The notes under the pieces are model-generated. The model worked only from the letters and a program-made list of their open reading frames with translations, was not told where the DNA came from and made no database searches. DNA of 64,000 bases from a virus, in the IMG/VR virus record IMGVR_UViG_3300027906_000002, positions 64,001 through 128,000 of that record. One strand, written 5' to 3'. Numbering within the stretch: position 1 is the stretch's first letter; each line of letters starts with the position of its first letter. This document shows positions 6,046 to 37,525 of the stretch, piece after piece. Made by a program: the position numbers and the translations under genes.

Positions 6046-6198
6046 ATGCCAAAGTTTAAAAATGGTGGTTCATGGGGAAGTACTGACTACATTCTCCCAG
6101 TACCAAAGAAGACCCGTCAAGGACGGAGTACTTTTACTAAATTAAGTGCTACTTCACGCAACAAAAAGAAGAAAGCGTACAGGGGCCAAGGTAACTGA
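6046..6198 (+). CDS. 50-aa highly basic peptide (not in ORF track)
   Basis: MPKFKNGG...PKKTRQGRSTFTKLSATSRNKKKKAYRGQGN; TGA overlaps the next ATG (TGATG). Confidence 0.75.
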   Translation: MPKFKNGGSWGSTDYILPVPKKTRQGRSTFTKLSATSRNKKKKAYRGQGN

Positions 6199-8913: not shown

Positions 8914-8915
8914 TT

Positions 8916-9653: not shown

Positions 9654-9884
9654 ATGAGTGAATCTATTATATTCAAAAGTATTGTACCAAGAGGCAGCTC
9701 TGTAGGTCCTACTGCGGAGCAAATGGATGCAGCTTATAATAAAAAAGATGAACGACATGAAGGTGTAGCGAATAGACCTGTTGATATGTCTGATGAATTC
9801 CGAAACAATGGCTGGGAATACTGTAAATATTTAATTACAGATCCAAGGAGTGACAGTTATCTTAAAAATAGGGAAGGTGAATAG
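9654..9884 (+). CDS. Hypothetical protein upstream of gp25
   Basis: 76 aa from ATG 9654; stop overlaps the gp25 GTG start. Confidence 0.75.
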   Translation: MSESIIFKSIVPRGSSVGPTAEQMDAAYNKKDERHEGVANRPVDMSDEFRNNGWEYCKYLITDPRSDSYLKNREGE

Positions 9885-10309
9885 TGGCATTAAAACCAAT
9901 AACAGGTGCAGAATTAACTAAAAATAAATCGAGACATTTTGCTGATGTTAATATTGCATTTTCTAAAAATAGGTTTACTGATGATGCATCAAAGGTAACA
10001 AATGCAAATTCAATCAAACAATCTATCAAAAATCTAGTTTTAACTAGACCAGGGGAAAAATTATTTCAAAGTAATGTTGGTAGTGGAGTATATCAAAGAC
10101 TCTTTGAACAGTTAGATCCCTTTACGATTGATACAATACAAGGTGACATAATAAATACCATTAACCAATATGAATCTAGAGTGCAACTTCTGAGTTGCAA
10201 ATTAACTCCATTTTACACTGCAGGTAAAGTTTCCGTAGCCGTTAGGTATAAGGTTGTTGGATTACCTATTACAGAATCTATATCATTCGTATTACAGAGA
10301 CCTAGTTAA
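9884..10309 (+). CDS. gp25: Baseplate wedge subunit gp25
   Basis: SIKQSIKNLVLTRPGEKLFQSNVGS...INQYESRV, the GPW/gp25 signature; precedes gp6. Confidence 0.92.
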   Translation: MALKPITGAELTKNKSRHFADVNIAFSKNRFTDDASKVTNANSIKQSIKNLVLTRPGEKLFQSNVGSGVYQRLFEQLDPFTIDTIQGDIINTINQYESRVQLLSCKLTPFYTAGKVSVAVRYKVVGLPITESISFVLQRPS

Positions 10310-21300: not shown

Positions 21301-24300
21301 TGAAGGTGCAGATATATTCAAGTTCCTTCTTGCTAATGAACCAGAAGGAAATGCAAATGTTAATCAAACAACTTATAGTACAAGTTCTCTGAAAGCAGTT
21401 GGTTCTATTGCGGATGTTCGTATAGTTAATGCTGGTGGATTCTACACTAAATTACCTATTGTTACAGATATTCAATCAACAAGAAATATTGAAAGAGTTC
21501 AAATTAATGAACCAGGTACTGAATATGCTATTGGTGTTTATAACTCTGTTCCTATTCAAGGTGATGGAGAAGGTGGTTTAGTTAGTATTCTAGTTAATGA
21601 TGGGGCAGATGAAGATGGTATTACAATTCCTGGTCAAATACAAGAGGTAGTTGTTACTTCTCCAGGTAAGGCATATACTACTGCTTATGTTGATATTGAA
21701 GGAATTCCAGGTATTCTTGGACCAGGATTACAAGGATCTGGTGCAGAATTGACTGTTGTTATTCCTCCTTTTGGTACTGAGGCATCTATCTTCACCAGAG
21801 GTGATAAGGTTGGTAAGATTAAGAAACTTAAAAACAATAACTTCGGTTATGATTATCCTCATGACTATACTTTACGTCCTGAGATTACATTCCCAATAAA
21901 TGCTCAGTTAACTTCTACAAGTATTCTTGAAAGTATTACTGTTACAAATCCAGGTTCTGGATATTCATTAGCACCTGCTGTAATAATTCAAGGTGGTGGT
22001 GGATATGGTGCTCAAGCTGAAGCATCTATTAAGAACGGTAGATTAGATAACATTGTTGTTAAAGATCCTGGTGCTGGATATTCTTCTACACCACAAGTTA
22101 GTTTAAGATCTTCTTTCAACTATGTTGTTAACTTAGACTTAGGTTTATTACAATTTGCTTATCCTCATGGAATACCCAATGGTGCTGAACTTTCATTAGC
22201 AGTAACTGATACTGGAGATGGTGCTGATTTCCCACTATCTGCTGGTGCTACTGGTCGTCTTAATGGAAATACTACTTATTATGCTATTTCTGGTTCAGCA
22301 AATTCACTAGAGGATGATCAATTAAAAATTGCTATCACTGAGGCTAACGCAGAACTTGGTGATGGTCTTACATTTGTCAATGCTGGTGATGGTCGTCAAA
22401 GTGTATTAACTGAGTCATTTGGTGGTGCTGCTGAAGCTAATGTTATCACATCTACTTTCTTGGAAGGTGAATTAGTTTATCAGGGGGAAACATTAGAAGT
22501 TGCTACTGCAACTGGATATGTTTCTACAAACTCTGGTTGGCAAGTTGGACCTAGAATTCTTAAGATTGTTAATCATGATGGTTTATTTGCAGAGAATGAA
22601 AGAATAACTGGTGTTATTTCTAAGTCTTCTGGTATTATTAGTGATCTTAAAGTTGCTCGTGGTGTGTTAGATATTGGATCTATCACTAAAACTACTGGTC
22701 AATTCATTGATGATGTTGGTAAGCCATCTGAAATTATTCAGAAGATTCAAGACTCTTACTATTATCAGGACTTCTCTTATGCTGTTAAGTCTGCTGTTTC
22801 TATTAGTGAGTGGAAAGAGATTCTAATCAGGAACGTTCACCCTGCATCATTTAAGGTGTTTGGTGAGTTGAACTTAAATGAATATGGTCAAATTCCTAAT
22901 AAGGAGACATTCTTCCAGTTAACTAAATCAGTCGAACTTGCTCAAGAAGCAGTTGTTCCTAATATCCAAAGTTTTGCTCTAGTTGAGCCAATTTATTCAG
23001 AGTTTAATAATACTGAAGTTTTATTCCGTCAAAAGAGATTGACATCTTCTGAGAATATTCTAACTTCTGTTGTTCAACGTGTTGATAATATCGATCACTT
23101 ATTTGATGGTGAGAGAATAGCATTCCCATTAACAGTTGAGGGAGGAACTGTTGTTGCTAACGCAAACCAGTTGATGATCGTTCTTAATGGTATTGTACAG
23201 AACCCAAATACAGCATTCCAAATACAAGGTGATTCTATAGTATTCTCTGAGCCACCTTCACCACCTGCTAGTGTTAAATATGCTAATCTTACTATTAGTC
23301 AGATCCAAACCTATGATTTAACATGGAATAACCAGAGTGGTATCTATCCTCTTATTGGTAATAGTCTTGTTGGTACTAGCTCACAAGCTAGATTAATTGT
23401 AACTTCAGTTACTGGAGATATTATCAGTGGATATATGGATGAAGGTACATTCATTCTTGGTGAATTATGTACAGTCTCTGCAACAGGATTCTCTGGTAAT
23501 TTAGTTGATATTACAGCTGTTTCTAATATTGGATTGTATACTTATGGAGAAACAGTTACTAACCTTCAAGGTGATACTGCTAAAGTCGAACAAATTAACT
23601 TAGAAACTGGTGCAGAAACTCCAGTTTGTGATTTACGTTATGCTATTGGACCTTCTACTACTGAATTTGAAGTAGTTCCTGTCGATGGTACTGGACCACT
23701 TCCTGTTGGAACCATAGATGTAGCCGAGAATGATGGATTCAGAATCGGTGCTGAAATTATGGAAGTACTCACAGTTGTTGATGGAGCTGAATCTACAACA
23801 ATAACCGTAGTTAGGGGTGTATTAGGAACTCAGGCAACTGCCCAACAAGAGGGTTCTCCAATGTATAGTACTGATATTAATGTTACTGAGGCTCTTACAT
23901 TAAGTAAGACTGCTGGTACATATCAGTCTACACCAGGTCTTTATAATATTCAATTGAATGATGTTATTATTGGTGCTAAATCTGGCACTGTATCTAGAGT
24001 TACAACTGCTAGTGTGTATCAAGATCCTGTTACGGGAGAGTTTATTGGTCAGGTTGATATTTCTCCTGGATCTTCATTCTTTGGACTACTATTCAACAGA
24101 ATTACATCTACATCTTATCCAAACGTAGTTATAGATGACATTTCCAAGTCTCAAATTAGTGTTGTCGATTTTGATGATAACGCAACTGCATACAACACAA
24201 ACTTCCCATCAAATGAGATAGTTAGTAACTATGTTATTCCTTACAGTAATGCAGTAGGAACATTGCAGATTGGAGAAGATATTCGTAACTATAAGATAGA

Positions 24301-27300
24301 GTATGGTAATAATACTGGAGAATTTACTGCTGGTGAAGATGGTAGAGTTAGAAAGATATCAATGTATGATAAAGAGGGTGAAGGATTCTTCAATGCAGGT
24401 CAAATAATTAGAACTCGTGATACTAAAGCTGAAGTTATTGGATATAACCAAGCACGTGGAATTGTATACTTAGGTAAGATTGGTAGAAGTCTACCTGATG
24501 GTCAAGATTATTTTGAGTTTGATTTTGCTAATGATGCTGCAATTTCTAATACACAGAAGAAATTTGGAAGTACTTCATTACAATTAGATGGTACTGGAGA
24601 TTATATTGGTGTTGCATCAACAAGTGAAATTGCTTTTGGTACAGGTGAGTATACTATTGAGTTCTGGTGCAGACCAGATACTGCTGCACTAGCAGGTTTA
24701 GCTGAAATTTATGATACTAGAACAGCTGATCCTGAAATTTCTGGAAGGATCTACTTAAATGGTGCTCAGATTCGTTATAATGTTAATGGTTCTGATATTG
24801 TAACTTCTGGTGCTACTGTTATTCCAACCAACAATACTTGGTATCATATCGCTGTAAGTAGATCTGGATCAACGGTTAAGTTATTCCTTGATGGAGTTGA
24901 AGTAGGATCTGCTACAGATAATAGTACATATGTTGCTAGACCAATTAGAATCGGAGCTACTTATTCAGCAACTAATGCATTTGCTGGATATATTGATGAG
25001 TTTAGAATTTCTAGTGTAGCAAGATATACTGGAGCATTTAATCCTCCTGCAGGTATCCATCAAGGTGATGTTGATACTAAGGTATTATTACATTTTGATA
25101 GTACTAATGGAGATAAATTTGTTGATGATTGGTCTGGTGGAGAATCATTTAGTAATGCAGAATACTTTAATAATGATCCTATTGTGGCTTCTAGACGTTA
25201 TATTGGGGATCATAATTATGTTGGTGGTACTGTATCTGGTGCTGTTATTATCCAGCAAGGTATAATATCAAAGGATGTAACTGATGCTACCTATAATGGT
25301 TCGACTGGAGACTTGGTATTAACCATAGGATCTCATAGTTATACAACATCAAATACAATTAAGATTGCTCATAATTCATTAACATTCACTTGTGATATGG
25401 ATAACAATGCTACTCAGCATACTTATCCACGTATAACTGACCCTGTATATGATACTGCAATTGCAATTACTGCAGTAACTGCTACTACAATTACAGTTAA
25501 TGTTGGTGTAGCAATTCAACAAGGATTTGCTAAGAATAGCCACAGATACAATAATGCTGGTCAATTAATTCTTAAGAACTTAGAATTTATTGCGAAAGAA
25601 GTTGTATACATGATTAATCATAGATTCCCTAACTTTACTGTTATTGGAGGAGATGCTAATTGTGAAGATGATGTTAAAGATATCTGTAGATCAATTGTAG
25701 CAGATATGCGTAATGGTGGTAATGATAAGACTTGGCTTGCTACTTCATACTATATCGATAGAGCTGACACAGCAAATGTAAAACTACTTAATATTGAGAC
25801 AGAGGTTAGAGAAACTATCTGGGCTTATAATAAACTTGATCAAATGTTAGAGTTTATTGTTACTAACAGTGAGTGGAAACCAGTTGGTGATCATGGATTA
25901 AAACAATACACTGACACATCTATTACTGATTCTTCCACAACTTCATTCACTTATAAGACACCTACTGGTGCAACTTATGATGCAGACACTGGAGATCTAA
26001 CACTTACTGACGTTGGTCATGGATTAGTTGGTAGAAGAGCAGTAACAGTAGAGGCTGGTACATCATATAATGCTGAAACTGGAATTCTTTCAGTAACATC
26101 TGCAAGTCATCTATTCCAAAATGGTGACAAGGTAATGCTTGAGAAAGAGTCATTGACCTTTACTTGTGATATGGATGGTCATAAGACTGAGCATAAGTAT
26201 CCAAGAGCATCAGATCCAGCACTTGCTGGTTGGTTAACTGTTAGCAATTCACAAACAAATACTTTTGATCTTGATGTTGGTAAGTCACCTCTATTAGTCT
26301 TCAATCCTACTGGTGGATCTTATGATGCATCGACTGGTCATATGAAGTTGCAAATAGGTGATAATATATTAACTCCAGGAACTAATATTAAGGTTGCACC
26401 CAATTCAATTTACTTTAAATGTACAAGTGATGGATTGCAGGCTGTTAAGAAATATCCTAGAACTACAGACCCAATTGCAGGTAAGCCAACCCCAATTGCA
26501 TATGATGGTGAGCAATTAAGTGCATCATTTGCTAACTATACACCTACAACAGGTGTAATGAGGATTACTGCTGGTAAGACATTCACTCCTCTTGATGCAA
26601 CATATAATGCTGTTAATGGAATGATGAATTTAACCATCCCTGATCATGGAATGGTTGCTGGTGATACTGTGAGATTGGAAGATGGTGCTATAACATTCAC
26701 ATGTGGTATGGATGATCATTATAGTACTCATGCATATCCTAGAACTACTGATCCTAAGAGAGGACTTCAGTTATCTATTACTAATGTTCAGACTCATTCA
26801 TTCTCAGTTAATGTTGGTATCTCACCTAAAGTTCAGTTAACACCTAATAATGGTTCTTATGATCCATCTACAGGTTTAATGACTTTAGAATTTAATACTG
26901 CTCATGGATTAACTGCTGGTACAAGTATTAAGATTGCAAAAGAATCATTAACATTTAGTTGTGGATTTGGTGGTGCTTCTGGCGATGCTGCTAAGAAGTC
27001 TTATCCAAGATCTACTGACCCATTCTATGATACTGCAGTCAAGATTGAATCAGCAACTACTAATGCTATTACTGTTAAAATTCTAGAGAACGTTCCTTCA
27101 ACTAACACTGATACTCATACTTGGGTTGGTGCTACAACTGGATGTATACACACTGGTGGTGATTATGAGCATATCTTCCATAGTGCTCTTACTAATGGTG
27201 TTGTTTGGAATAAGCATGGTCTTGTTAATGGAGATAGAATTAAGATTGCTACCAATTCATTAACATTTACATGTCAGTTAGATAATCAAATAACTGAACA

Positions 27301-30300
27301 TTCATATCCTAGAGCAACTGATCCTTATAATGGAAGATGGTTGGCAGTATCTAATGTAGGTGCTAATACATTTGATGTTAATGTTGGAATTTCTCCTGAT
27401 ACTTCATCACATATATTCAAATCAGCTTATTTAAATGGAATTACTAAGAGAGATGGAAGTATAACTCTTGATGTTGGTAAGTCACCTAGAGTTGGATATG
27501 ATGTTGCTGGTGCGACATATGATCCTCTTACTGGTGATATGGTTCTTAATGTTGGAATTCATAATCTTCTAGAGAATCAAACGATACAAATTGCTGATAA
27601 TGGATTATCATTTACATGTGCTATGGATGGTAATGCAACCACACATAGTTATCCTAGATTAACTGATCCATCTCGTAAGCATGCACTTAATATTACTGAT
27701 GTTGGTGAGACAAGTAAGACTGTAAGTGGAGCAAGTTATACACCAGCTTCAGGACAAATGAGTCTTACTGTTACTGGACATAATCTTACTCCTGCTACAA
27801 CACATACACCAACTAATGCAGTTTATAACCCTGCTACTGGTGAATTAGAGTTAACGATTGTTGGTCATAGTTTTGATAATGGTGATAGGATTCTACTTGA
27901 TGATGACTGCTTAACATTTACATGTGCTAAGGATAATCATCAATCACAACACACATATCCTAGAGCGAGTGATCCATCTAGTATGAAGTGGTTGTCTGTA
28001 CAGAATGTACATGTAGATAGATTCACAGTTAATATTAGTAAGTCAACGGATATATCTGAGCATAGATTTATTTCTGCTACTTCAACTTGTTTGAAGAGAG
28101 CAAAAGATTCAGTTAAGTTTGATGATGATTCAATTACATTTAGATGTGATTTGGACTCTCAAGCAACTGATCACACATACCCAAGAGTAAGTGACCCTGT
28201 TCATCAACAATGGATTCCTATTACATCTTCACCAGATGCTAATACTATTGTTCTTAATGTTGGTAAGTCTTCTGATACATCAACACATGTATATCAAACT
28301 GCAACTTCTGGCGGTCTAAAAGCACAAACTGGATATATTACAGTTAATGTTGGTAAGTCACCTACTGTTTCACATAACCCATCATCAGTAACATATACAC
28401 CTGGTAATGGTTCTATGGCAATGAGTATTGGAAATCATTACCTTCGTGGTGGATCTCAGCATACAGCAACTACTGCATCCTATGAGGCATCAACAGGTAT
28501 TATGACCCTTAGTGTTGCTAATCATGGATTCTCTGTTGGTGATTATATTAAGATTGCAGAGAACAGCATTACATTTACATGTACTATGAATGGTAATGCA
28601 ACTAATAAGCAATATCCAAGATCTACAGACCCATCATTCAATAAGTGGTTGGCAATTGTAGGAATAACAACAGATACATTCCAAGTTAATGTTGGTGCTT
28701 CACCTCTTGTAAAACATAATGTAACTACTGCAACATATGATCCTGCTACTGGTCTTATTGAAGCAACTATTGGATCTCACACTCTCGAAGTTGGTGAGCC
28801 AGTAATGCTTAAGGATTATGGATTCTCATTTACTTGTGGTCTTGATGGAGATACAATTTCTAAGTTATATCCTAGAGAAACAGGATTTATACAGAATGCT
28901 GGTGTTGCTGACCCTGCATGGAGAACTCCTGTAGTAATTACTGCTAAGAGTGCTACAACAATTACATTTAATGTTGGTACTTCATCTGATGTAACTGCTC
29001 ATAACTGGACTGGTGGTACATCTTCAGAAGCAATAGTTTCTGGTGGTGATTATGACCATACATTCGTAACTGCTTCTACTAATGGAGTATACAGAACTAA
29101 TGAAACCGTGATGATTGGTGAAGAGTCTATGACCTTCACATGCGACTTTAATGGTGATGGTAATACTACTGAGAAGAAATACCCTAGAGCATCAGGTTCT
29201 AACGCTCCTGGTGGTGCTGATTATGCATATAACAAACCTGTTCCTATTACATCTGTAGGAACTAATACACATACACCAACTTTAGCAACTTATGTTCCTG
29301 CTACTGGTGTTATGAACATCCAGTTGGTAAATCATGGATTCGCATTATCAACTAATCATACAGTAACTGATGCAACATTTACAGCAACAACTGGTGTAAT
29401 GAAACTCACTGTTGCTGGTCATGGATTCCAAGAGGGAGATAGAATTAAACTTGGTGATGGATCTTTAAGATTTACATGTGCTAAGGATGGTAATGCAAGC
29501 AATCATGACTATCCTAGAGCATCTGATTTTGCAAGTAATAGATGGTTACCAATATTCAATGTAAGTACTAATTTCTTTGAAGTTAATATTGGTAATATGT
29601 TTGGACCAGCAGCGATTTCACATACGACTGCACATGCATTTGTATCTGCTGTTGCTAATGGATTAACCAAGGCAAATTCTTGCATCAAACTTGCAGAAAA
29701 TGCATTAACATTCACATGCGGTAAGGATAGTGGTGCTAGTGAGCATTCATATCCAAGAAGAACTGACCCATCATTCGATGAGTGGTTACCACTAAGTAAT
29801 GTTCTAGTAGATTCATTTGATGTTTATATTGGTAAAGCTAGTGATACATCAACTCATACATTTGTATCTGCTGTTGCTGGTAGTCTTCATAGTCAAACTG
29901 GTGTTATTAATTTGAATGTTGGTATATCAACTGACACAACTACTCATAATTATGTTGCTGCAACTAAGTTAACACCCACTAATGCTGCTTACAACCCAAC
30001 TACAGGTGTCATGACTATCACTGTCAATGATCACAATATGGCAAATGGTGAGCAAGTTATGATTGATGATGGTGCTATTAAGTTAAGTTGTGCATTTGGT
30101 GGTGCATCTGGTGGTGCTGCAGAGAAGGATTATCCTAGAGCATCTGACCCTGCTAGTGGTAGATGGTTAACTGTTTCTAATGTTTCTACCAATTCATTTG
30201 ATGTACAAGTATTAGATGTAGTACCTTCTACAAACACTGATGCACATTCATTCGTATCTGCTGTTTCTAATAGTATTACTAGAGGTATCTTAAGAACTGG

Positions 30301-33300
30301 TGGTAATCACAGTCATACATTTGCTAAGGCAAGAAAGAATGCTGTAATCGCTGGTGGTATCTATAGACATGAGTTTGTTTCTCCTAGTGCATATACAGTA
30401 ACTGATGGTGCTTACAACCCAACTACAGGTGTGATGACCCTTACAATTCCTAATCATGGATTTGAATCTGGTGATTATATTATGATGGATGATGATTCCA
30501 TAGTCTTTAATTGTAGTTTTGGTGGTAGTGCAACAGATAAGTCATATCCAAGATCATCTGACCCAATTAGCGGTAAGTATGTACCTATAGGTAATGTAAC
30601 TACTGATACATTTACTATTCAGGTATTAGATTCTACACCTTCCACTAATACTGATGCCCATACATTTGTATCTGCATCTACTGGTGGTGTTCATAGAGCA
30701 GTACTTCATACAGGTGGTGTTTATAATCATACATTCAAATCTGCTACTATTAATGGAATATACAATCAGGGTCAGGCAATAGAAATTCTACCTGATGCAC
30801 TTAAGTTTACTTGTGATATGGATGGTGCAGAAACTAATCACCCATACCCTCGTAAGACAGATCCAGCATACAAGTCTTCATTACCTATTACTCATTACAC
30901 TGCTGATACATTTACTGTAAATGTAGGTAGTACTACTTTTGGTGATAATAGAAATTATACTTCATATACACCTTCCTTTGCTACATACGATCCTTCTACT
31001 GGTATATTAATATTAACTATTGAGGGACATCCATTAACTTCAGATGATTATATCACCTTAGATGATAATGCATTGAAATTTACATGTTTAATGGATAATA
31101 ATCAGACTACTAAGTCTTATCCACGTCCAGGACATGATGTTCGTGCAGCAAGAAGGAAACTTAAGGTTCTTGGAACCACGGTCAATACAATAAGTCTTAA
31201 TGTAGGTGCTGCACAAGCAAACCAAACATTTACACCTTCTGATGCATCTTATGATGCTGAGACTGGTGAGATGACCTTAACAATTGGTCAGCATGGTATG
31301 AGAGTTGGAGCAAACGTTACTATTGCAAATGGTAGTTTAAGATTCACATGTGGAATGGATGGCAACACTGCTAATAAGGATTATCCTCGTGCAACAGATC
31401 CATATGGAGATCTTAAGTCTATTCCAATTACTCATGTAGGTCATACACACGGAACAGTAACAAATGCTGTGTATACTCCTGCATCTGGTTTGATGGTTCT
31501 AACCGTACCTGCACATGGATACTCTAATGGAGATTATATTCAGATTGCTGATGAATCATTAACACTAAGATGTTTGCTTGATGGTAATAGTACTGATCAC
31601 TCATATCCAAGATCTACTGATTATCCTTCAGGAAGATGGTTACCAATCTCAAATAAGACAAATGATACATTCGAGGTTAATGTTGGAGTTTCACCTGATA
31701 CTACAACACATGTATTCCAGAAAGCTGCTACTAAGGGTATTAGAAGACAGAGTGGTGTAATAACAGTTAATGTTGGTAAATCACCTGTTAAGGGATATGA
31801 TGTAACTGATGCATCCTTTGTTCCTGGAACTGGAGCTCTAACTGTTACCATAGGTAACCATAGTTTAACTACAGGTACAGCAGTTAGAATTGCTAATAAT
31901 TCACTTGTATTCCGTTGCGATCAAGATGGTCAAGGTTCTGATCACTCATATCCTCGTGCAAATGGTCAGGGTGGTGCATCTGGTAATGACCCTGCATGGA
32001 ATACAGCAGTCAATATTACTGCTGTAACTCCAACATCAATTACTCTTGATGTAGGAACCTCAAGTAATACAACAACTCATGTATTCCAGAATGCGAATAA
32101 TACATATTCACCTACTAATGCTTCTTACAATCCAAGTACAGGTGTTATGACATTAACCCTTGCTAACCACGGATTTGTTAATGGTGAGCATGTTAAGATT
32201 TCTGATGGTGGATTGAAGTTTACTTGTGCTCATGACGATTATGCAACAACTCATGCATATCCACGTTCTACTGACCCTGTAAGTAATAAGTGGATCCCAA
32301 TTTCTAATGTACAGACTAATACATTTGATATACAGGTATTGGATGTAGTTCCTTCTACTAATATAACCGCACATACTTTCCATTCTGTAGTTGCTAATTG
32401 TCTTACTAGATCAGTTATTACTACTGGTGGTGATTATACACATACATTTGTAGGTAACCAAGGTTCTAATACTGTTTCATATACTCCACAAGCATCACAT
32501 ACATTCGTATCTTGTGATGCTGGAGCAGTTAAGCACCAATTAACAATACACGATTTTGCACAAACAACTGCAAATGGAATTAAGGTTCTTAATTATAATA
32601 CATCCGATTGTACTGATGTACAAACAACTATAGAGAACTTAATTAGTATTGTTACAGATACTTTAGATGCTGCACTACAAAATCCACCTCTTGATTATCT
32701 TGGTAGTCTTGTTAGATATTCACCTCCACATGAATTCCTTGGTGGTAGAATATACTCTTACTATGAAGAAGAGTTCCCAATTAATTGGCATGATGGTACA
32801 GAAGATATCATGTTTACTAATCAGATTGGTCCTGCAGGTAAGTACAGATTTGTAGATGCTGCCAATTTAGTTCAGTTAAATGCTGGTCCTATTGTAGATA
32901 AAGCATCAAACGATATGCTTACTTTATATCCAGATCTTGCTTTGGATATGCCTAGAAACTTTGATGGAAGTGGTGCTGGTACATTACAATGTAAGACTGA
33001 CTTAGCGTTAATTCTTCAAGAATTCATTAAGGATCTTAGGGATGGTGGTAATTTCAATACTGTGAATGTTGCTAAGAGATATCTTGGTAGTAATGATATT
33101 CTATTACACATTCGCTTACAGGCATTCCAATCTGCATATGCTCATGAGCGTCTTGCATATTACATGAAGCAAGCAGTTAATGGTGATTTAACAACAGGTA
33201 ATACTGATAAGATCGTTGTTGGTGCTTGGGGTATTACTCAATCTAATTCAGCATCATTCACTCCAACTGGAGCAACTTATGAGCCAACAACAGGTGACTT

Positions 33301-36300
33301 AGTGTTAACTATTGGTTCTCATACCTTAGTTAAAGGTAGAATGATAAGAATCGCAACTGATGGATTAACATTCACTTGTGCTCTTGCTGGTGGTAACCAC
33401 ACATATCCTAGAATTACAGACCCTGTATATCTACAGAATATTGAGATTACTGATGTAACAGCTACCACAATTACTGTTAATGTTGGAATTTCTTCTAACA
33501 CTTCATTACATACATTCGTATCTTCTGTTACTGATTCAGTAACTGCTCCTGGAGATTGTACAAACGTTACTACTGCTATTGATAACTTAGTAACTATTGC
33601 AAACGATATCATTGCTCCTACAAATGCTGATTTTGCAATTGCTGCTGATAGACTTTACTTTAATAGAGATGGTATTGCGGATGAGATTACTGCTCTAACA
33701 CGAGTAGAGTTTACTTACATGTTAGATACCTCTCAACAGTTTGCATTCTCTTATCCAGAACCAGGTGGAGAAACTACATGTGCTAGAGACTTGAAACTCA
33801 TTATATTGGGTATTATTTCTGACTTGCAGACTGGTGGTAATAATAGTACTGTTGCTGCAATGGAATACTACTTATCTTCTGCGATGCAAGTCATTAACGT
33901 TGAAGATGAACTTCTAGCAACAGTTTATGCTATAGAGCAATTAGGATGGTTATGTGAGCATGCTGCTAAAGGTGAGTTAAGAGTTAAAGGTGGATCATCA
34001 GTTCCTCCTCTTTATGCTTACCTACATTCAGCTGATACTCCATATAGTGATAGTGAAACACCTACTGATATGTCAGTAGTTGGAACTAGAATTAAAGAAT
34101 TGGTTAATACCGCAATTAATATTCTCGTTCCAGGTAAGAGACCTATGAGAGGTGCTGCTAAGAACTTAATTTTCAATAGAGGATACTATAAAGAAGAAAT
34201 TACAACTCTAGTTAATGCACAGTTTGGTACTAATACTTGGTTATACAATGATTGGGTTGATAGTATTATTACTAACATGAGTCACGATTTGTTAACTACA
34301 GATATTAGTGATTCTATTATTGCTCATGATATATCAATTGAAAGTGTTATTGGAAGATTTGAAGTTGGTGAATTAATCACTTCAGATAAAGGAACTGCTA
34401 AAGTTTTAGAATATAATTCAGAAACTAACTTATTAATTGTTGGTGAATTTGTGGGAACTCCTTGGGGATCTAATACTTCATTAACTGGAACAAAATCTAG
34501 TGCATTAGCAACTGTTTCTGTCAATGGTGTTGGTAGTAGTTACACTTGGTTTAATTCACCAGGTAATGTAAGGACAATAAATTTTGCTAAAAATATTACA
34601 TCAAATATTTCTGGTCAAGTTTCTGGTATTAACTTATTCACAAATCCAGAATTGTTTGTACCTAATTGGACAGGTACTGGAGTTGGATTTAGTGATAACT
34701 TTACAGTTGCACCAGACAATACCAGTACTGCAACTAAATTAATTTCTAGTAATACTGGTGGTGAGCATACTGTTGATAGATTATATAACTTAACTGCATT
34801 TGATACATGGGATGATGGTGGTATTACGTTTGACGATACTACAAATAGTTTTGATGAAGGTGGTTCTGGTACTGGTGATGATCAGCAATATACATTCTCA
34901 TGCTTCTTTAAGAAGGCAGAATATGAGCAAGTAAGATTCCATATCATACTTGATGATGGAACTGCTGGAGAACAAAGTATATTCTTTGATCTTAATATGA
35001 ATACTGGTAACACAGGTACTTTGTTTATACCTCAAGGTGGTATATCAGGTGATGCTTATGGTGCTGTTCCTTATGGTGGCGGTTGGTATAGAGCATATGT
35101 TACAACAACATTCTCATTTGGATTTACTGAACTTAAGGCTAGAATTAACGTAGCAAATGAAAATAATCAGATATCATATACTGGTGATGGGAGTAAGGGT
35201 GTTTATGCTTGGGGTTCAAAACTTTCTAAGGGTACGTTAGATCCATATACTTCTGCTTCTGATGGAATATTCTATGCTGATGGTGAGTTTAATATTAAGA
35301 GATACGCATTAGATAGATTGGAAGAATATATCATTGCTGCAATGACTGATGGTCTTACAAGTCCATCTCCTGAAGCAGGATATTTAAAATTCTTCTCTGC
35401 TGATGCTGCTGGATATTATGATATTAGATCTGTAAGTAGAGTTGTACGTGATAATCTTAAATTACTCAGTGAGCAATTAGCAGTTGATACTTATTATACT
35501 ACTGTTACAGTTAACAATGGAATTACAATTCCTACTTACACATATGGTACTAGAGAATTGCCAGTTGGATTAGGTGGTGGATTAAAACCTTCGGATTACT
35601 TATATGGTACTGCTAGTGATAGTTACGCTGAATTAGAAACTATTGTTCCTAACAAAGGTGAGATTGTTAAGATCTATCAGAGATTCCGTTTTGATGGTGA
35701 TGTGGTTGATGGTCCTTGGGTCATGAACGAGACAGTTGCTAAGAATGGTGACGCAACCGTTACTGGTGTTATATACGCAATTCATGAGGATGAGAACTTT
35801 AGTTACATGGATATTGAAGTTACTGGTAATCCTTGGGCTATCACTGATTATGTTGTTGGTTCTACAAATAACACAACAGCACAGATTAGTTTGATAGAGG
35901 ATCGTATACAAATTATCGATCTTGATGGTGAGTTTGATGCAACAGTACCATTTAAAGGATATACCAGTGGCGGTACTGCTACTCCTACTAGCTTCCTTAG
36001 AAATGAGGCTGCTATACTTAATAATACTGGTGGTACTTTAACGGTTGATACTGAGACTCTTGTTGGTTCATTTGAAAAAACTTCTGTTGTTTATCCAGAA
36101 ACTTCCAGACAATTTGTTACTGTAAGTAAATATAATGGTTTAGATGTTGGTGTTGGTGACAGAATCGCATCAAATGGATATGTCAGAATTGGTATTTCTA
36201 TTATTAGTGATCTAAATCAATTTAGTGTTGGTAACAGACTTTATAAAGTTGTTGGTGGTGTTGCTGATCAAAATAATTATGCAATTATTACTGAGGTTGA

Positions 36301-37525
36301 TATAGATAACAACTTCCTTTATATCGCTGATTACCAAGGAGATAATCTTACAAATGGTGATCTCGTAGGTGACTATGGTCTTGGTGGTAACTTCCCTGTA
36401 GGTTACGCATCAGTAATTACTAGAGTTGAAACTCCTGGTGCTGGTGCTGCATTAGTACAAGACATACGTCCAGATGGTCAGTACAAGAGATTGTATTTAA
36501 GTGATATTATAGGATCATTTGATCTTAAGGATTCTGTTATTGGACCTGGAGATTATAAGGCAGCAGTTCAAGCTAAAGTTGATCTTAATGCACGTGTTAA
36601 GAGAGCATTCAAAGGATTTGATGGAGTACAAGATACATTCAATCTAACGATTGATAATGGTGTTAATTACCTCCCAGATCCTGAAGGACATCTTCTTGTA
36701 TACGTCAATGGTATTCTACAACCTCCAGGTGGTACTAACGCATATACAGCGTTCTCTAACCAGATTCAATTCACTGAAGCACCAGAGATAGGTGCATCAT
36801 TCACAGGATTCTACGTTGGTAAGTTAAGACAGTTAGATGATATCTCCTTCGAGTTTGACTCTTTACGTCAGTCATTCAACCTTAAGCGTAATGATGTATT
36901 CTACTCACTAACGCTAACAGAAGGTGTCCAGTCTTCTACAATACGTCCAGAAAATAATATTATTGTTTCACTTAACGGTGTTGTACAGGAGCCAGGCGTA
37001 GGTTTCGAGATCGTTGGTTCTAGAATAATCTTCTCTGAGATTCCTCGTGTGGGATCAACATTCGTTGCCTTCTCCTACGTTGGTTCTGAGGCAGACGTTG
37101 ATGCTGCTGAGGTCGTACCACCTATCGAACCAGGTGACTTTATTGACATCCAAGGTGAGACCGCAGACAGAGAAGTTGCTGTTATTGAGTCTTCCAACTC
37201 TCTAATTACTTTCGACTATCTTGGTTCTGTATTCGGACAAAATGCTAAGGCATCTGCAAATCTAACTGCAGGGTTTATTAATGATGTTCAGGTAACATCT
37301 GGTGGTTCTGGATATACAGCTAGACCGAATGTTAGAATCGATTCTATATCTGGATTTGATGGAAACATCAGAGCATTGATCGGGGTTGCAGGTGTTGAAA
37401 TGAATAATGCTGGATCTGGATATAAGGATCCAAAAATTGAAGTTGAAACAACTGTTCCTCTTGATTGGAATGCACCTAATCTTGCAGATTATGGTGAAGA
37501 AGAGGTAGACCCCGAAACACCATAA
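12341..37525 (+). CDS. gp7: Giant baseplate wedge initiator gp7-like protein (8394 aa)
   Basis: Follows gp6; N-terminal PDFIEQDYPLFNKFIEYYY and IKDFYASKGT..LFKLLYGE gp7-like motifs; also carries YHYH, propeller-like, LamG-like and repeat domains in one uninterrupted 25,185-nt ORF. Confidence 0.85.
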   Translation: MANTNKVSQSVKSLTPDFIEQDYPLFNKFIEYYYRSQEKTGLGQNIVNNFLQYLDIDKLDVGILDGATKIVEAINETDDKIIVESVDTFLEKNGSLLIGDEVIYYEKTTSSPNIALSPGISYEQVQLKWTGLASPLALFDGSKQRFPLTSQDNPIAPPSAQHLIVKVYGELQIPLLDFTVDGTDIVFTEAPRAKLDADDTSSTTVTYMSGFVESPIVQIDNISNSFGDDKRQFTITRNNERYEPVIDEYVYAIYDNQLLIPKEEFYIDHDQFIFKNAPLNGRYLELFAVEAPIPSFGADAVGYARIDNDGSLTGISTNINGSNYRYEYPPKVSVNSLTGSGASATALVNGVKEVQLLSGGKGYSDTNPPTVVVQDPTKPGAKTSQIKATVTNGEVSSLEVLNSGNGYTFTPRLTFQQPGGAKIGVPYIVGGSISGTVEVLEKGFGYTTVPEIYVDEPTGEDGIKASLQAVLVDGQIQSINILNAGQGYETVPRMMIKDPVGAQVLETRVDGDGRVVSIELLSGGSGYDDVPSVYILDDRTDGTGAYAGGTGATAVASIFNGRIIDINIVNFGRDYSAANPPTIFIQDPPSAEASANVGLNQVTGFIVNQAGSGYTKAQFEGCARAASGITAYTEDGNAVFTNDTAATSAAIDTPVKCLDQLFVKRLLDKYTEQFLPDVPSLDYTKIDVRNAIKSIKDFYASKGTSFSIAYLFKLLYGETVSISYPKDQIIKPSNATWSIDTILRASLESGDPVNIKDGLITQEADIADSNVQAASALVENFISIKTSELEIFELVLSEETINGTFTVPYKTRLGEPLTVDDSIITVDSTIGWPERNGEFVIGGTEVVQYKEKSLNQFIECTRSVNGVVEDWDSATEVKSNFRIYINKGTLQEVVMNIVGIVDAQQTTLTDTGSYYLPGDKLTVSKLGGTGINPDLTTWLYNVKKLIEVTSITYGGVNDQSATVTCANPHGLLVGDQVTIYGANPIIYNGSSLVTSRDGEYIFQYNLPQPATVEPQGNILVSIDLNKGKSLNTAIFNAISPYTTNVQNSFFNDQYVYVAATGIPNYEIGPFPGSALLPGNQRKLNRFPKVAQTISTKDIINPGPIGTWVNGVSIWSYKSDLSKTFGAVTGIDILNVGKDYDAASPPAITISGGGGANATAEVTVDGSISEITVTDGGSGYTTSPLVSIVGGDGSGAAATAIITKGEVSRILINTGGTGYTSQPSITIVGGEGTGAQGTASVRGPIKSIDVTNGGNSYTSKPTISLSSGSGAVAQAIVNNGRIISIAIISAGQGYTTAPEVTIQGDGFGAIARATIDVDGENAGRVTGIEIVNRGINYLQGTTVINLTSVGQDALFESNVFEWTYNLESTSIFDDARGGVFTGYNNEYGGEYAHLSNPQRMRYILGDNLYKDAYGKTLEKEDQLGHSPIIGWAFDGNPIYGPYGYTDPTDQGSAVIRLSTSFRLQESLVFDATTNPYPIRNDGPLLTDVDTDGDYLYPAGKFVEDYEYVFGLGDLDQYNGRFCKTPDYPEGRYCYFVTIDATEDGNALFPYVIGPSYNSVVDTWNLSTSAVQQNIPSGVVRYRDPYENVDIDVSRTPNASTAALTTEDGDVLMFEVEDVNRDGVITADETENPAEMFEESPLQLFDYFPKVKFDSKVDIEVETITKFEDASVTGFTIENPGKNYQVDDILTFDNSGTDGAGVSARISRIKGEAIDSYSFENVNGLNYGVLDTNVPHNLVTGDEVYVDYTPIMNNTNKSFVVRQIKGIESIVIDQAGSGYDEEIPPTIIIDGDGTAGKLEAVVTSVGSIDTVNIINSGSNYTTSPRVILSHPQIFKKADYYVTTISNNNYVCVNDVYVNDEKETFYCGKTKDATGNTVAFISKYSALGVKEWERTLESTVGQYYTEYQKIYVNKNAYTNDEIWVVGNNRPNANLLDVYNPDIILCKYTQSVDGLDATLDFQKGYAGISGANRADYVTCIEKYSDIRYVIGGYTNTNSLNPDDAFIASIDTTGNFAVKRKIASGTLSERLTDMLIIGDNVYFTMETASGPDSKDINLAFGKATIGINAITIDWIKELSNTVYSFLNTSLTIDEFNEFYVTATCRLKSDDTTKDSFWVGKLNAEGNVIWNYRYLATGRELTLVDKAVIDIFGDLNVAYTKDDQVTRKTTVGTVKIGYDGTMKKHSTSEFNKKQIEGITANAMDVDVSGDVYVYGQTQWNRNEFILDFADGGAPLTDLSAHYTITDQSANNSIRYLNGVAKIDGCNVPANTQTTWENGHIKASSSELGTTLDGDFTIQMMVYIDGDSGLPFSLSQNLMTLCQIGSSQDATGGLWLGFGTGRGLDLTIANSSTQIVNATAISSASSVMLNNTWISVAITKSGNLFSSYVNGVLVASGTISNTSFAGKDLYFGVGPGFGAGVNDFDKDTQGQFFLDDIKLKNRAVTPTSPSDINGLPQASQFGFGYSWTDTAWFAAQTRRYEYDDYIGFGLKIDKNADSERLGDQGLQTNTQIGFARTNIDVVPGSPLTIGSTGFELAEAGFQSLDFDDATTTMSQDTETLTYAADVWSARTSTVPSPGSQKLRVSAVVKDRYYIKPTSTTVINNIQELTLNQAFDFTVGAKLVLQNPNGTFINSGYIIKKDNSVNKIYLAIIHNAWTDDLDNGELVTQQFSEQDSYGIIGPLPNDINEIKNYVFTEINNTTPGTFDIDLATFDAPSDIGGTNNLDDFAKLKEFDVNDYSIRIDEVSGGSTYIPGSVVDITSSDITFNTAYSTCQITNLAGVLKITLTANLTKIIQVSSVANTDEVYCITSTSHYLHTGEMIYIDGNPSQESGGTTYDEYDGAFPVDSVISPLEFTYKLNQAAVTSPSASAAAVSVYVKSPVLKMYYGHQYLFDLSHSSMVGGNLSFAKDNLYKLEYSFNSIERIGIPGVTGQGQPTPTVKLKIDEDIVTNISYYFDPSRTGADSPVIEGSYLDVTDSPYKGIFTISSTAGATITEGADIFKFLLANEPEGNANVNQTTYSTSSLKAVGSIADVRIVNAGGFYTKLPIVTDIQSTRNIERVQINEPGTEYAIGVYNSVPIQGDGEGGLVSILVNDGADEDGITIPGQIQEVVVTSPGKAYTTAYVDIEGIPGILGPGLQGSGAELTVVIPPFGTEASIFTRGDKVGKIKKLKNNNFGYDYPHDYTLRPEITFPINAQLTSTSILESITVTNPGSGYSLAPAVIIQGGGGYGAQAEASIKNGRLDNIVVKDPGAGYSSTPQVSLRSSFNYVVNLDLGLLQFAYPHGIPNGAELSLAVTDTGDGADFPLSAGATGRLNGNTTYYAISGSANSLEDDQLKIAITEANAELGDGLTFVNAGDGRQSVLTESFGGAAEANVITSTFLEGELVYQGETLEVATATGYVSTNSGWQVGPRILKIVNHDGLFAENERITGVISKSSGIISDLKVARGVLDIGSITKTTGQFIDDVGKPSEIIQKIQDSYYYQDFSYAVKSAVSISEWKEILIRNVHPASFKVFGELNLNEYGQIPNKETFFQLTKSVELAQEAVVPNIQSFALVEPIYSEFNNTEVLFRQKRLTSSENILTSVVQRVDNIDHLFDGERIAFPLTVEGGTVVANANQLMIVLNGIVQNPNTAFQIQGDSIVFSEPPSPPASVKYANLTISQIQTYDLTWNNQSGIYPLIGNSLVGTSSQARLIVTSVTGDIISGYMDEGTFILGELCTVSATGFSGNLVDITAVSNIGLYTYGETVTNLQGDTAKVEQINLETGAETPVCDLRYAIGPSTTEFEVVPVDGTGPLPVGTIDVAENDGFRIGAEIMEVLTVVDGAESTTITVVRGVLGTQATAQQEGSPMYSTDINVTEALTLSKTAGTYQSTPGLYNIQLNDVIIGAKSGTVSRVTTASVYQDPVTGEFIGQVDISPGSSFFGLLFNRITSTSYPNVVIDDISKSQISVVDFDDNATAYNTNFPSNEIVSNYVIPYSNAVGTLQIGEDIRNYKIEYGNNTGEFTAGEDGRVRKISMYDKEGEGFFNAGQIIRTRDTKAEVIGYNQARGIVYLGKIGRSLPDGQDYFEFDFANDAAISNTQKKFGSTSLQLDGTGDYIGVASTSEIAFGTGEYTIEFWCRPDTAALAGLAEIYDTRTADPEISGRIYLNGAQIRYNVNGSDIVTSGATVIPTNNTWYHIAVSRSGSTVKLFLDGVEVGSATDNSTYVARPIRIGATYSATNAFAGYIDEFRISSVARYTGAFNPPAGIHQGDVDTKVLLHFDSTNGDKFVDDWSGGESFSNAEYFNNDPIVASRRYIGDHNYVGGTVSGAVIIQQGIISKDVTDATYNGSTGDLVLTIGSHSYTTSNTIKIAHNSLTFTCDMDNNATQHTYPRITDPVYDTAIAITAVTATTITVNVGVAIQQGFAKNSHRYNNAGQLILKNLEFIAKEVVYMINHRFPNFTVIGGDANCEDDVKDICRSIVADMRNGGNDKTWLATSYYIDRADTANVKLLNIETEVRETIWAYNKLDQMLEFIVTNSEWKPVGDHGLKQYTDTSITDSSTTSFTYKTPTGATYDADTGDLTLTDVGHGLVGRRAVTVEAGTSYNAETGILSVTSASHLFQNGDKVMLEKESLTFTCDMDGHKTEHKYPRASDPALAGWLTVSNSQTNTFDLDVGKSPLLVFNPTGGSYDASTGHMKLQIGDNILTPGTNIKVAPNSIYFKCTSDGLQAVKKYPRTTDPIAGKPTPIAYDGEQLSASFANYTPTTGVMRITAGKTFTPLDATYNAVNGMMNLTIPDHGMVAGDTVRLEDGAITFTCGMDDHYSTHAYPRTTDPKRGLQLSITNVQTHSFSVNVGISPKVQLTPNNGSYDPSTGLMTLEFNTAHGLTAGTSIKIAKESLTFSCGFGGASGDAAKKSYPRSTDPFYDTAVKIESATTNAITVKILENVPSTNTDTHTWVGATTGCIHTGGDYEHIFHSALTNGVVWNKHGLVNGDRIKIATNSLTFTCQLDNQITEHSYPRATDPYNGRWLAVSNVGANTFDVNVGISPDTSSHIFKSAYLNGITKRDGSITLDVGKSPRVGYDVAGATYDPLTGDMVLNVGIHNLLENQTIQIADNGLSFTCAMDGNATTHSYPRLTDPSRKHALNITDVGETSKTVSGASYTPASGQMSLTVTGHNLTPATTHTPTNAVYNPATGELELTIVGHSFDNGDRILLDDDCLTFTCAKDNHQSQHTYPRASDPSSMKWLSVQNVHVDRFTVNISKSTDISEHRFISATSTCLKRAKDSVKFDDDSITFRCDLDSQATDHTYPRVSDPVHQQWIPITSSPDANTIVLNVGKSSDTSTHVYQTATSGGLKAQTGYITVNVGKSPTVSHNPSSVTYTPGNGSMAMSIGNHYLRGGSQHTATTASYEASTGIMTLSVANHGFSVGDYIKIAENSITFTCTMNGNATNKQYPRSTDPSFNKWLAIVGITTDTFQVNVGASPLVKHNVTTATYDPATGLIEATIGSHTLEVGEPVMLKDYGFSFTCGLDGDTISKLYPRETGFIQNAGVADPAWRTPVVITAKSATTITFNVGTSSDVTAHNWTGGTSSEAIVSGGDYDHTFVTASTNGVYRTNETVMIGEESMTFTCDFNGDGNTTEKKYPRASGSNAPGGADYAYNKPVPITSVGTNTHTPTLATYVPATGVMNIQLVNHGFALSTNHTVTDATFTATTGVMKLTVAGHGFQEGDRIKLGDGSLRFTCAKDGNASNHDYPRASDFASNRWLPIFNVSTNFFEVNIGNMFGPAAISHTTAHAFVSAVANGLTKANSCIKLAENALTFTCGKDSGASEHSYPRRTDPSFDEWLPLSNVLVDSFDVYIGKASDTSTHTFVSAVAGSLHSQTGVINLNVGISTDTTTHNYVAATKLTPTNAAYNPTTGVMTITVNDHNMANGEQVMIDDGAIKLSCAFGGASGGAAEKDYPRASDPASGRWLTVSNVSTNSFDVQVLDVVPSTNTDAHSFVSAVSNSITRGILRTGGNHSHTFAKARKNAVIAGGIYRHEFVSPSAYTVTDGAYNPTTGVMTLTIPNHGFESGDYIMMDDDSIVFNCSFGGSATDKSYPRSSDPISGKYVPIGNVTTDTFTIQVLDSTPSTNTDAHTFVSASTGGVHRAVLHTGGVYNHTFKSATINGIYNQGQAIEILPDALKFTCDMDGAETNHPYPRKTDPAYKSSLPITHYTADTFTVNVGSTTFGDNRNYTSYTPSFATYDPSTGILILTIEGHPLTSDDYITLDDNALKFTCLMDNNQTTKSYPRPGHDVRAARRKLKVLGTTVNTISLNVGAAQANQTFTPSDASYDAETGEMTLTIGQHGMRVGANVTIANGSLRFTCGMDGNTANKDYPRATDPYGDLKSIPITHVGHTHGTVTNAVYTPASGLMVLTVPAHGYSNGDYIQIADESLTLRCLLDGNSTDHSYPRSTDYPSGRWLPISNKTNDTFEVNVGVSPDTTTHVFQKAATKGIRRQSGVITVNVGKSPVKGYDVTDASFVPGTGALTVTIGNHSLTTGTAVRIANNSLVFRCDQDGQGSDHSYPRANGQGGASGNDPAWNTAVNITAVTPTSITLDVGTSSNTTTHVFQNANNTYSPTNASYNPSTGVMTLTLANHGFVNGEHVKISDGGLKFTCAHDDYATTHAYPRSTDPVSNKWIPISNVQTNTFDIQVLDVVPSTNITAHTFHSVVANCLTRSVITTGGDYTHTFVGNQGSNTVSYTPQASHTFVSCDAGAVKHQLTIHDFAQTTANGIKVLNYNTSDCTDVQTTIENLISIVTDTLDAALQNPPLDYLGSLVRYSPPHEFLGGRIYSYYEEEFPINWHDGTEDIMFTNQIGPAGKYRFVDAANLVQLNAGPIVDKASNDMLTLYPDLALDMPRNFDGSGAGTLQCKTDLALILQEFIKDLRDGGNFNTVNVAKRYLGSNDILLHIRLQAFQSAYAHERLAYYMKQAVNGDLTTGNTDKIVVGAWGITQSNSASFTPTGATYEPTTGDLVLTIGSHTLVKGRMIRIATDGLTFTCALAGGNHTYPRITDPVYLQNIEITDVTATTITVNVGISSNTSLHTFVSSVTDSVTAPGDCTNVTTAIDNLVTIANDIIAPTNADFAIAADRLYFNRDGIADEITALTRVEFTYMLDTSQQFAFSYPEPGGETTCARDLKLIILGIISDLQTGGNNSTVAAMEYYLSSAMQVINVEDELLATVYAIEQLGWLCEHAAKGELRVKGGSSVPPLYAYLHSADTPYSDSETPTDMSVVGTRIKELVNTAINILVPGKRPMRGAAKNLIFNRGYYKEEITTLVNAQFGTNTWLYNDWVDSIITNMSHDLLTTDISDSIIAHDISIESVIGRFEVGELITSDKGTAKVLEYNSETNLLIVGEFVGTPWGSNTSLTGTKSSALATVSVNGVGSSYTWFNSPGNVRTINFAKNITSNISGQVSGINLFTNPELFVPNWTGTGVGFSDNFTVAPDNTSTATKLISSNTGGEHTVDRLYNLTAFDTWDDGGITFDDTTNSFDEGGSGTGDDQQYTFSCFFKKAEYEQVRFHIILDDGTAGEQSIFFDLNMNTGNTGTLFIPQGGISGDAYGAVPYGGGWYRAYVTTTFSFGFTELKARINVANENNQISYTGDGSKGVYAWGSKLSKGTLDPYTSASDGIFYADGEFNIKRYALDRLEEYIIAAMTDGLTSPSPEAGYLKFFSADAAGYYDIRSVSRVVRDNLKLLSEQLAVDTYYTTVTVNNGITIPTYTYGTRELPVGLGGGLKPSDYLYGTASDSYAELETIVPNKGEIVKIYQRFRFDGDVVDGPWVMNETVAKNGDATVTGVIYAIHEDENFSYMDIEVTGNPWAITDYVVGSTNNTTAQISLIEDRIQIIDLDGEFDATVPFKGYTSGGTATPTSFLRNEAAILNNTGGTLTVDTETLVGSFEKTSVVYPETSRQFVTVSKYNGLDVGVGDRIASNGYVRIGISIISDLNQFSVGNRLYKVVGGVADQNNYAIITEVDIDNNFLYIADYQGDNLTNGDLVGDYGLGGNFPVGYASVITRVETPGAGAALVQDIRPDGQYKRLYLSDIIGSFDLKDSVIGPGDYKAAVQAKVDLNARVKRAFKGFDGVQDTFNLTIDNGVNYLPDPEGHLLVYVNGILQPPGGTNAYTAFSNQIQFTEAPEIGASFTGFYVGKLRQLDDISFEFDSLRQSFNLKRNDVFYSLTLTEGVQSSTIRPENNIIVSLNGVVQEPGVGFEIVGSRIIFSEIPRVGSTFVAFSYVGSEADVDAAEVVPPIEPGDFIDIQGETADREVAVIESSNSLITFDYLGSVFGQNAKASANLTAGFINDVQVTSGGSGYTARPNVRIDSISGFDGNIRALIGVAGVEMNNAGSGYKDPKIEVETTVPLDWNAPNLADYGEEEVDPETP
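25261..33540 (+). repeat. 23 copies of a ~70-110-aa module (YxxxTG..L.IxxHxxxxGDxIxIxxxxLTFTCxxDxxxxxHxYPRxxDP)
   Basis: Counted by the C...YPR core: one copy near 25.3-25.5 kb, 21 between about 25.95 and 32.56 kb, one near 33.3-33.5 kb; DNA mostly diverged. Confidence 0.9.

Follow-up and report, generated by a model that had tools for sequence, protein, structure and literature searches.

The stretch of DNA analysed here (the window, 64,000 nucleotides, positions 64,001 to 128,000 of the IMG/VR virus record IMGVR_UViG_3300027906_000002) holds at the gp7 position of a baseplate gene cluster a giant open reading frame (ORF) for a virion or baseplate protein (Table 1). The virus record is complete with 179,402 bp, and its closest cultured relatives are T4-like cyanomyoviruses, e.g., S-SM1, P-SSM7 and P-SSM3. 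In the C-terminal third of the protein one helical domain occurs three times, with 21, one and no beta modules inserted before its last helix. An initial annotation of the window had proposed this arrangement, and it was confirmed: the copies found each other in phmmer searches, and the profile hidden Markov model (HMM) of the family split exactly at the inserts. The annotation had spoken of a generic helical unit and thereby missed the identity of the fold, which changes the meaning of the finding. Most probably, the C-terminal third of this protein consists of three tandem domains of the phycobiliprotein (PBP) fold, a globin-like fold, which are distant homologues of the phycocyanin and phycoerythrin subunits of the host; the loop between helices G and H would be a permissive insert site and the conserved cysteines the equivalents of the bilin sites.

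All motif coordinates of the initial annotation were recovered in the translation of window 12341-37525. The Cys codons of the C-x-x-D...GGN motif lie at 25661, 32990 and 33779 (amino acids (aa) 4441, 6884 and 7147), and the closing helices with the motif DCT begin at 32606 and 33554 (aa 6756 and 7072). With copy 3 as query, phmmer retrieved copy 1 with an E-value of 1.7e-8 and copy 2 with 3.8e-8; aligned with the inserts excised, as the initial annotation had advised, the copies share 25-29 % pairwise identity. The family HMM matched copy 3 contiguously (positions 2-173, E 1.7e-68). On copy 1 it was divided into positions 2-146 at aa 4402-4533 (E 1.8e-21; E 1e-39 with an HMM of the N-terminal part) and positions 128-168 at aa 6736-6775, on copy 2 into positions 1-142 and 135-173 on either side of the insert. 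No match of the helical-domain HMM was present inside the array of 21 modules. By this sequence comparison the three helical copies are true paralogues and no chance resemblance. The equivalent of the closing helix in copy 3 lies at aa 7240-7266 and has no Cys, while the helix H Cys of copy 1 (aa 6757) is invariant in 64 relatives. The putative remnant of a fourth copy was recognised by eye from an FN(R)...EEIT motif.

Table 1. Features of the giant gene and its surroundings in the window, and giant proteins with PBP-fold matches in two cultured phages
Feature	Sequence	Position	Strand	Evidence or context
Heme oxygenase gene ho1	window	7643-8320		Pfam E 3.9e-68; inside baseplate cluster
gp25	window	9884-10309		upstream neighbour of giant ORF
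gp6	window	10310-12334		directly before giant ORF
Giant virion/baseplate protein gene, 8,394 aa	window	12341..37525	+	ORF list and translation; gp6-gp9 interval
Module m0, aa ~4312-4398, YPR at aa 4362	window	25274..25534	+	module HMM and YPR anchor; directly before copy 1
Copy 1 body (helices A/B, E, F', G; Cys aa 4441, motif CEDD)	window	25544..25939	+	family HMM, N-part HMM
21 beta modules with YPR motif, array of 2,202 aa inserted in G-H loop of copy 1	window	25940..32545	+	21 YPR anchors
Helix H of copy 1, aa 6753-6778, Cys aa 6757	window	32597..32674	+	H-helix HMM
Copy 2 body (Cys aa 6884, motif CKTD)	window	32849..33190	+	N-part HMM, E 1e-39
Single module m22, aa 6973-7060, in G-H loop of copy 2	window	33257..33520	+	module HMM
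Helix H of copy 2, aa 7069-7095, Cys aa 7073	window	33545..33625	+	C-terminal helix in PBP alignments
Copy 3, uninterrupted complete domain of probable PBP fold (Cys aa 7147, motif CARD)	window	33629..34141	+	family HMM
Putative degenerate start of a fourth copy, first helix only	window	34151..34231	+	HMM positions 5-31, E 0.24
gp9-like gene	window	37548-38774		directly after giant ORF
Giant proteins with PBP-fold matches, phage P-HM2	NC_015284	54712-57585, 81209-83911		
Giant proteins with PBP-fold matches, phage S-PM2	NC_006820	55558-58083, 166210-170373		

The beta modules, each bearing a YPR motif, number 23 in total: one before copy 1, 21 within copy 1 and one within copy 2. Those of copy 1 have about 90 aa each and lie between aa 4534 and 6735; the body of copy 1 and its closing helix are 2,243 aa apart. 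The modules, at a median pairwise identity of 34 %, are old and diverged as far as their sequences tell. Modules m0 and m22 share 57 % identity and form the second-closest pair among all 23, which hints at an old duplication of a unit of module plus domain. In a structure model module m22 is an all-beta domain (residues 223-321) that was skipped by the alignments to PBPs. It resembles the small beta-barrel insertion domain of the endosialidase of phage phi92 (4hiz; Z 7.8, 81 aligned residues, 17 % identity) and, with Z 7-8, other phage tail proteins; a sub-threshold Pfam match to a carbohydrate-binding family was also obtained. Like the phi92 EndoN domain it is small and interrupts a loop of a bigger fold within a phage protein for host recognition, but the match is moderate and the modules of the giant protein have a conserved C...YPR..DP motif of their own. 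At window ~27450-28450 (aa ~5040-5370) a nested module order was seen by eye: a first hairpin (A.Y.P..G...LT...H) is followed by a whole second module and then by the C...YPR part of the first. With such nested elements a long array could come back to its starting loop.

The fold was assigned on two AlphaFold models. Model 1, computed template-free from 64 phage sequences, comprises 582 residues of the window protein (aa 6749-7330; predicted local distance difference test (pLDDT) 75), and model 2 the three-copy array of S-SM1 (pLDDT 78). In model 1 the body of copy 2 is helical at residues 83-199. All Foldseek matches of model 1 with a probability of 1.00 were PBPs, at E-values against the PDB that are weak (0.03-0.1) for the 582-residue model. 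VIA-align superposed residues 58-344 on the beta chain of phycoerythrin (7ap5_B) with Z 17.8, 171 of 184 residues and a root mean square deviation (rmsd) of 3.5. These residues are the body and helix H of copy 2 with the module skipped; they cover whole PBP beta chains (1-172 and 1-184), copy 2 helix H serving as the C-terminal helix, and all 50 rows listed were PBPs. Copy 3 (model residues 346-515) aligned to PBP residues 33-177 with Z 16, and model 2 reached Z 18.4 over 169 of 184 residues. Altogether the superpositions gave a globin-like fold at Z 17.5-18.4, 169-171 of 184 residues and rmsd 3.1-3.7. A wide structure search independent of Foldseek placed PBPs and the core-membrane linker ApcE on ranks 1-8 (Z 17.5-13.2), sensor globins at Z 12.3 and ordinary globins at 7-9.

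Sequence comparisons led to the same family. Searched with phmmer against the PDB, copy 3 returned phycocyanin alpha as the sole helical-protein match (E 0.065), with the phage CARD on the KCARD of the bilin site. Run against the PDB, a profile from 43 insert-free copies of all three paralogues (A4) reached E 6.4e-5 with C-phycocyanin alpha; PBP alpha chains made up the 28 best matches, with the phage Cys on Cys84. An hhalign comparison of A4 with a profile of 23 PBPs from picocyanobacterial genomes (A5) yielded a probability of 78 % and E 1.8e-5, and it set C-x-R-D on C-L-R-D with the Gly at C+18. Both tests agree in register: C, R+2, D+3, G+18. Of Cys84, Arg86 and Asp87 all three have an equivalent in copy 3; copies 1 and 2 (CEDD, CKTD) keep only Cys and Asp.

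With the PBP beta subunits (CpcB, CpeB; PF00502) the phage domains share the helix order A/B-E-F'-G-H over a nearly whole-chain superposition, the helix-E Cys in C-x-R-D of copy 3 with its Gly at +18, and a second Cys that starts helix H at the beta-153/165 position. They differ in being strung head to tail along one 8,394-aa virion protein instead of forming free alpha and beta subunits, in the huge inserts of their G-H loops, and in the missing Arg86 equivalent of copies 1 and 2, which stay below the Pfam threshold. In model 1 helix F is a loop and the X/Y hairpin does not appear clearly: PBP residues 1-32, the X-Y hairpin region, aligned to a low-confidence linker (model residues 58-82, pLDDT 41-55) or to helices of the preceding copy.

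Several results weigh against the assignment to the PBP fold. The hhalign match spans only 60 columns at its 78 % probability. None of the copies, searched one by one, matched PF00502 even with the E-value limit relaxed to 10. The phycocyanin match in the PDB disappeared when the profile was built from seven copy-3 sequences only, and it was recovered with the mixed-paralogue profile alone. VIA-align listed the best domain per chain only, and this was never copy 1 (copy 2 in the S-SM1 model). The lectin-like display role of the modules, which is part of the functional picture, has the standing of a reasonable inference. Pfam returned nothing on the helical region, the link to PBPs emerging only with a family profile, and in a profile search of 1.84 billion proteins host PBPs fall above the E threshold at that library size. 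Since Pfam is blind to the domain, it has to be seen as a distant, unannotated branch of the PBP family rather than as a member by Pfam threshold. The principal alternative is analogy, i.e., a globin-like bundle of independent origin whose invariant Cys and Asp have a different task, e.g., metal binding or helix capping. The lack of a Pfam match, the identity to PBPs of only 11-20 %, the Z of 12 reached by sensor globins and a search of the ESM Atlas that was uninformative (best score 0.79) would fit such an origin. However, PBPs scored 5 Z units above the best non-PBP fold with whole-chain cover, two independent sequence tests at E ~1e-5 arrived at the same register, and viruses of cyanobacteria were the only ones in which the family turned up (all 331 GenBank phage records matched by copy 3 are cyanophages). 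We consider analogy unlikely and retain homology to the PBPs.

The initial annotation had further suggested that the paired Cys form a disulfide clamp across the insert. This suggestion found no support, because each of the two Cys falls on a chromophore site of its own in PBPs. In PBP beta subunits bilins are bound to Cys82/84 on helix E and to Cys153/155/165 at the start of helix H; these are separate bilins, and the sites are far apart. Counted back from the aligned chain end, the helix-H Cys of the phage domains falls in both models on residue 153 of the 172-residue phycocyanin beta chain and on residue 165 of the 184-residue phycoerythrin beta chain. Conservation was determined over 174 representative proteins with 1,498 domain instances in all. 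On helix E, Cys occupies its position in 98 % of the instances, Arg stands at +2 in 91 % and Asp at +3 in 99 %; the helix-H Cys is present in 55 %. A generic helical unit with two Cys tying the base of the insert loop would agree with copies 1 and 2, which bear inserts and have both Cys, with the insert-free copy 3, which keeps the first and is missing the second, and with the conservation of both Cys at >= 90 % in the 64 closer relatives. Against a clamp speak, besides the distance of beta-82/84 and beta-153/155 known from PBP structures in general, the unequal conservation across the family (98 % vs 55 %), the copy 2 of S-SM1 and many IMG/VR relatives with both Cys and no insert, and the copy 2 of P-RSM4, in which the first Cys is present and the second lost. 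A clamp is thus very improbable; on the models the conserved Cys take the places of Cys84 and Cys153/155, where PBPs attach bilins, and are no disulfide pair. The helix-E Cys is lost in copy 3 of P-SSM7, S-CAM22 and P-RSM4 and in all copies of P-SSM3; there Arg is gone too, and in copy 3 also Asp. In the giant ORF of P-SSM3 (locus L014; aa 4477-6132) the three helix-E Cys are replaced by Q, R and R, while a cpeT gene is retained. Sites of the beta-153/165 type are served by T-type lyases (PMC10452541).

The models run through the helices A/B, E (which bears the Cys), F' and G, then the insert and helix H, which places the insert in the G-H loop, next to the beta-153/155 bilin site. Two proposals of the initial annotation were supported, one permissive loop as the insert site and a single fold that is completed by its last helix behind the insert. 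The arrays begin with a body and finish with a helix H in each of ten cultured phages and some 80 loci of IMG/VR. S-RIM14 has four body-plus-helix units and no modules, and in one relative (L043) copy 1 is insert-free and aligns end to end with the other copies. The helix H of copy 1 had a pLDDT of ~62 in model 1, where its body is absent, and ~86 in the S-SM1 model with body and one module. A shifted register, in which the 'closing' helix would be the first helix of the next copy and the modules would lie between domains and not in a loop, is hardly credible: copy 2 helix H does run into copy 3 after three residues, and some VIA rows place the helices G/H of copy 2 where the X/Y helices of copy 3 belong (model 166-515 vs chain 4-177), but arrays open with a body without a preceding helix and end with a helix H without a full body after it, body and helix H together match full-length PBP chains to their C-terminus once the module is bridged, and between the helix H of copy 1 and copy 2 lies a low-confidence linker of 59 aa, the pLDDT of this helix staying low where copy 2 but not the body of copy 1 is modelled. 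Helix H of copy 2 probably also leans on copy 3 in the model; it is used in place of the X/Y helices of copy 3, and therefore the domains are probably tightly stacked. With the insert inside the fold, each domain would be a body of the helices A/B, E, F' and G closed by the last helix H. The G-H loop would be permissive and accommodate 21 beta-barrel modules in copy 1 and a single one in copy 2, copy 3 being without, nested or hairpin-like modules may return the chain to the loop, and the PBP-fold domains may act as a compact hub that displays variable numbers of lectin-like modules towards the host surface.

Natural variation of the insert number between homologues, anticipated in the initial annotation, was evident in cultured phages and IMG/VR loci. 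Seven close relatives (83-93 % identical) that reach copy 1 keep the same 21 modules, and six of the seven also span copies 2 and 3 with the full 21/1/0 pattern. Given as copy 1 B-E loop / copy 1 G-H loop / copy 2 G-H loop / copy 3, the module counts are 0/21/1/0 in the window and its close relatives, 0/11/0/0 in P-SSM3, 5/2/2/0 in P-SSM7, 4/1/0/0 in P-RSM4, 0/1/0/0 in S-SM1, S-RIM50 and S-CAM22, and ?/1/1/0 in S-MbCM25; S-RIM14 and S-SZBM1 have none. The IMG/VR relatives add 0, 3, 4 and >= 8 modules in copy 1 and 0, 1, 2 and 4 in copy 2, hence the G-H loop of copy 1 ranges from 0 to 21 modules among relatives, that of copy 2 from 0 to 4. Phages isolated on Prochlorococcus (three) had higher module numbers than those from Synechococcus (six), a small sample without phylogenetic control. 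The B-E loop of copy 1 is a second insertion site, with 4-5 modules in P-SSM7 (L002), P-RSM4 (L017) and a further relative (L052). The PBP domain of ApcE, among the top structural matches with Z 13.2-14.2, is likewise a PBP fold inside a large multidomain protein that is broken by a loop insertion; in host genomes its Pfam match is split into positions 2-54 and 67-155. In ApcE the insert is one unstructured PB-loop between helices B and E, whereas the phage inserts are folded beta modules, up to 21, in the G-H loop. The window protein has its inserts between G and H and none of the ApcE type; the position of the PB-loop is used only in relatives such as P-SSM7, P-RSM4 and L052.

The gene order gp25, gp6, giant ORF and gp9-like gene is the same in S-SM1, P-SSM7 and P-SSM3, whose syntenic genes encode 6,180-7,312 aa and carry the label 'virion structural protein' or 'similar to gp7'. 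The family phrog_701 'virion structural protein' is colinear with the giant ORF over the whole length. PHROG baseplate-wedge matches are located in the N-terminal part, and phrog_2885 'baseplate wedge subunit' matches at E 4.5e-203; the Pfam match to Baseplate_wedge (PF23786) is weak with 29.1 bits at a cut-off of 27. Gene neighbourhood and wedge domain together place the protein among the baseplate wedge proteins. Like gp7 of T4, a baseplate wedge protein of ~1,030 aa, it is encoded between gp6 and gp9 or gp8, but it is far longer, and its PBP-fold region and modules were not seen outside cyanophages; the name gp7 is given by some annotators to another, downstream gene. Within its own genome the PBP-fold domain is restricted to the giant ORF. 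A megablast search of the region against GenBank phages returned no matches. In the N-terminal part (aa 1-4400, window 12341-25540) a YHYH domain is located at aa ~1385-1540, and two Laminin_G_3/concanavalin-like domains are present in the giant protein at aa ~2270-2440 and ~4083-4228.

The PBP-fold domains may still bind a bilin, at the Cys of C-x-R-D and at the beta-153-like Cys, attached by T-type lyases such as the phage CpeT, and pigmented baseplates or fibres could then act as light sensors; we regard this as a tentative idea, rather doubtful on present evidence. The strict conservation of the bilin-site residues suggests a putative retained bilin binding, and C, R and D of the site were lost jointly in some lineages. 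The ho1 gene lies ~4 kb upstream of the giant gene among three 2-oxoglutarate (2OG)-Fe(II) oxygenase genes on one strand (window 6198-9626), and the genome of the window phage also carries two bilin reductases and a cpeT-like gene. In P-SSM7 and S-CAM22 the same slot holds a 2OG oxygenase only. Among cyanophages, genes for bilin synthesis and of the cpeT type are confined to myocyanophages (PMC10452541), and the reason for bilin-synthesis and CpeT genes in cyanomyoviruses has been called a mystery (PMC3037559). Adsorption of P-HM2 and S-PM2 needs light, P-SSM2 and P-SSP7 adsorb in the dark; the light dependence does not require host photosynthesis (PMC6628666). Our search detected six PBP-fold domain matches in P-HM2 and ten in S-PM2, in two giant proteins each (Table 1), and none in P-SSM2 and P-SSP7.

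This comparison of four phages is confounded by relatedness, and further observations speak against a pigment. P-SSM7 kept domains and Cys and is missing cpeT, P-SSM3 has cpeT and lost all three Cys, and copies 1 and 2 of the window protein have no bilin-site Arg. P-SSM2, in which no PBP-fold domain was detected, carries bilin-synthesis genes according to the literature. A tight link between cpeT and the Cys of the domains was rejected after a test in five phages.

The profile search gathered 915 cluster representatives, 199 of them below E 1e-30, including giant proteins with 12 to ~25-30 tandem PBP-fold domains, nearly all with C-x-R-D (metagenomic representatives P0002, P0004, P0005 and P0008). 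GenBank relatives of these many-domain proteins (S-RIM44, S-CAM4, ACG-2014h) are annotated as tail or short tail fibre, and the labels across the family are 'tail protein', 'short tail fiber' and 'baseplate wedge', all in cyanomyoviruses. Pfam, PHROGs and UniProt names hold no annotation of a PBP-fold domain, and our literature searches found no paper on a phycobiliprotein-like or globin-like domain in cyanophage virion proteins. New here are the placement of the inserts within the PBP fold, a natural series in their number and the rejection of a clamp between the Cys.

With the PBP assignment, a light-harvesting fold would have been recruited, and widely so, into the infection machinery of viruses that attack its users. 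The G-H and B-E loops of the PBP fold would tolerate folded inserts, which exceed 2,000 residues in the G-H loop, and the relatives offer a natural insert series of 0, 1, 2-4, 11 and 21 modules. Two questions of cyanophage biology become testable, the purpose of the bilin and CpeT genes and the light-dependent adsorption without host photosynthesis. If the domains do bind a bilin, the light-dependent adsorption of cyanomyoviruses would be explained, and the phage genes ho1, pebS/pcyA and cpeT would gain a phage-encoded target.

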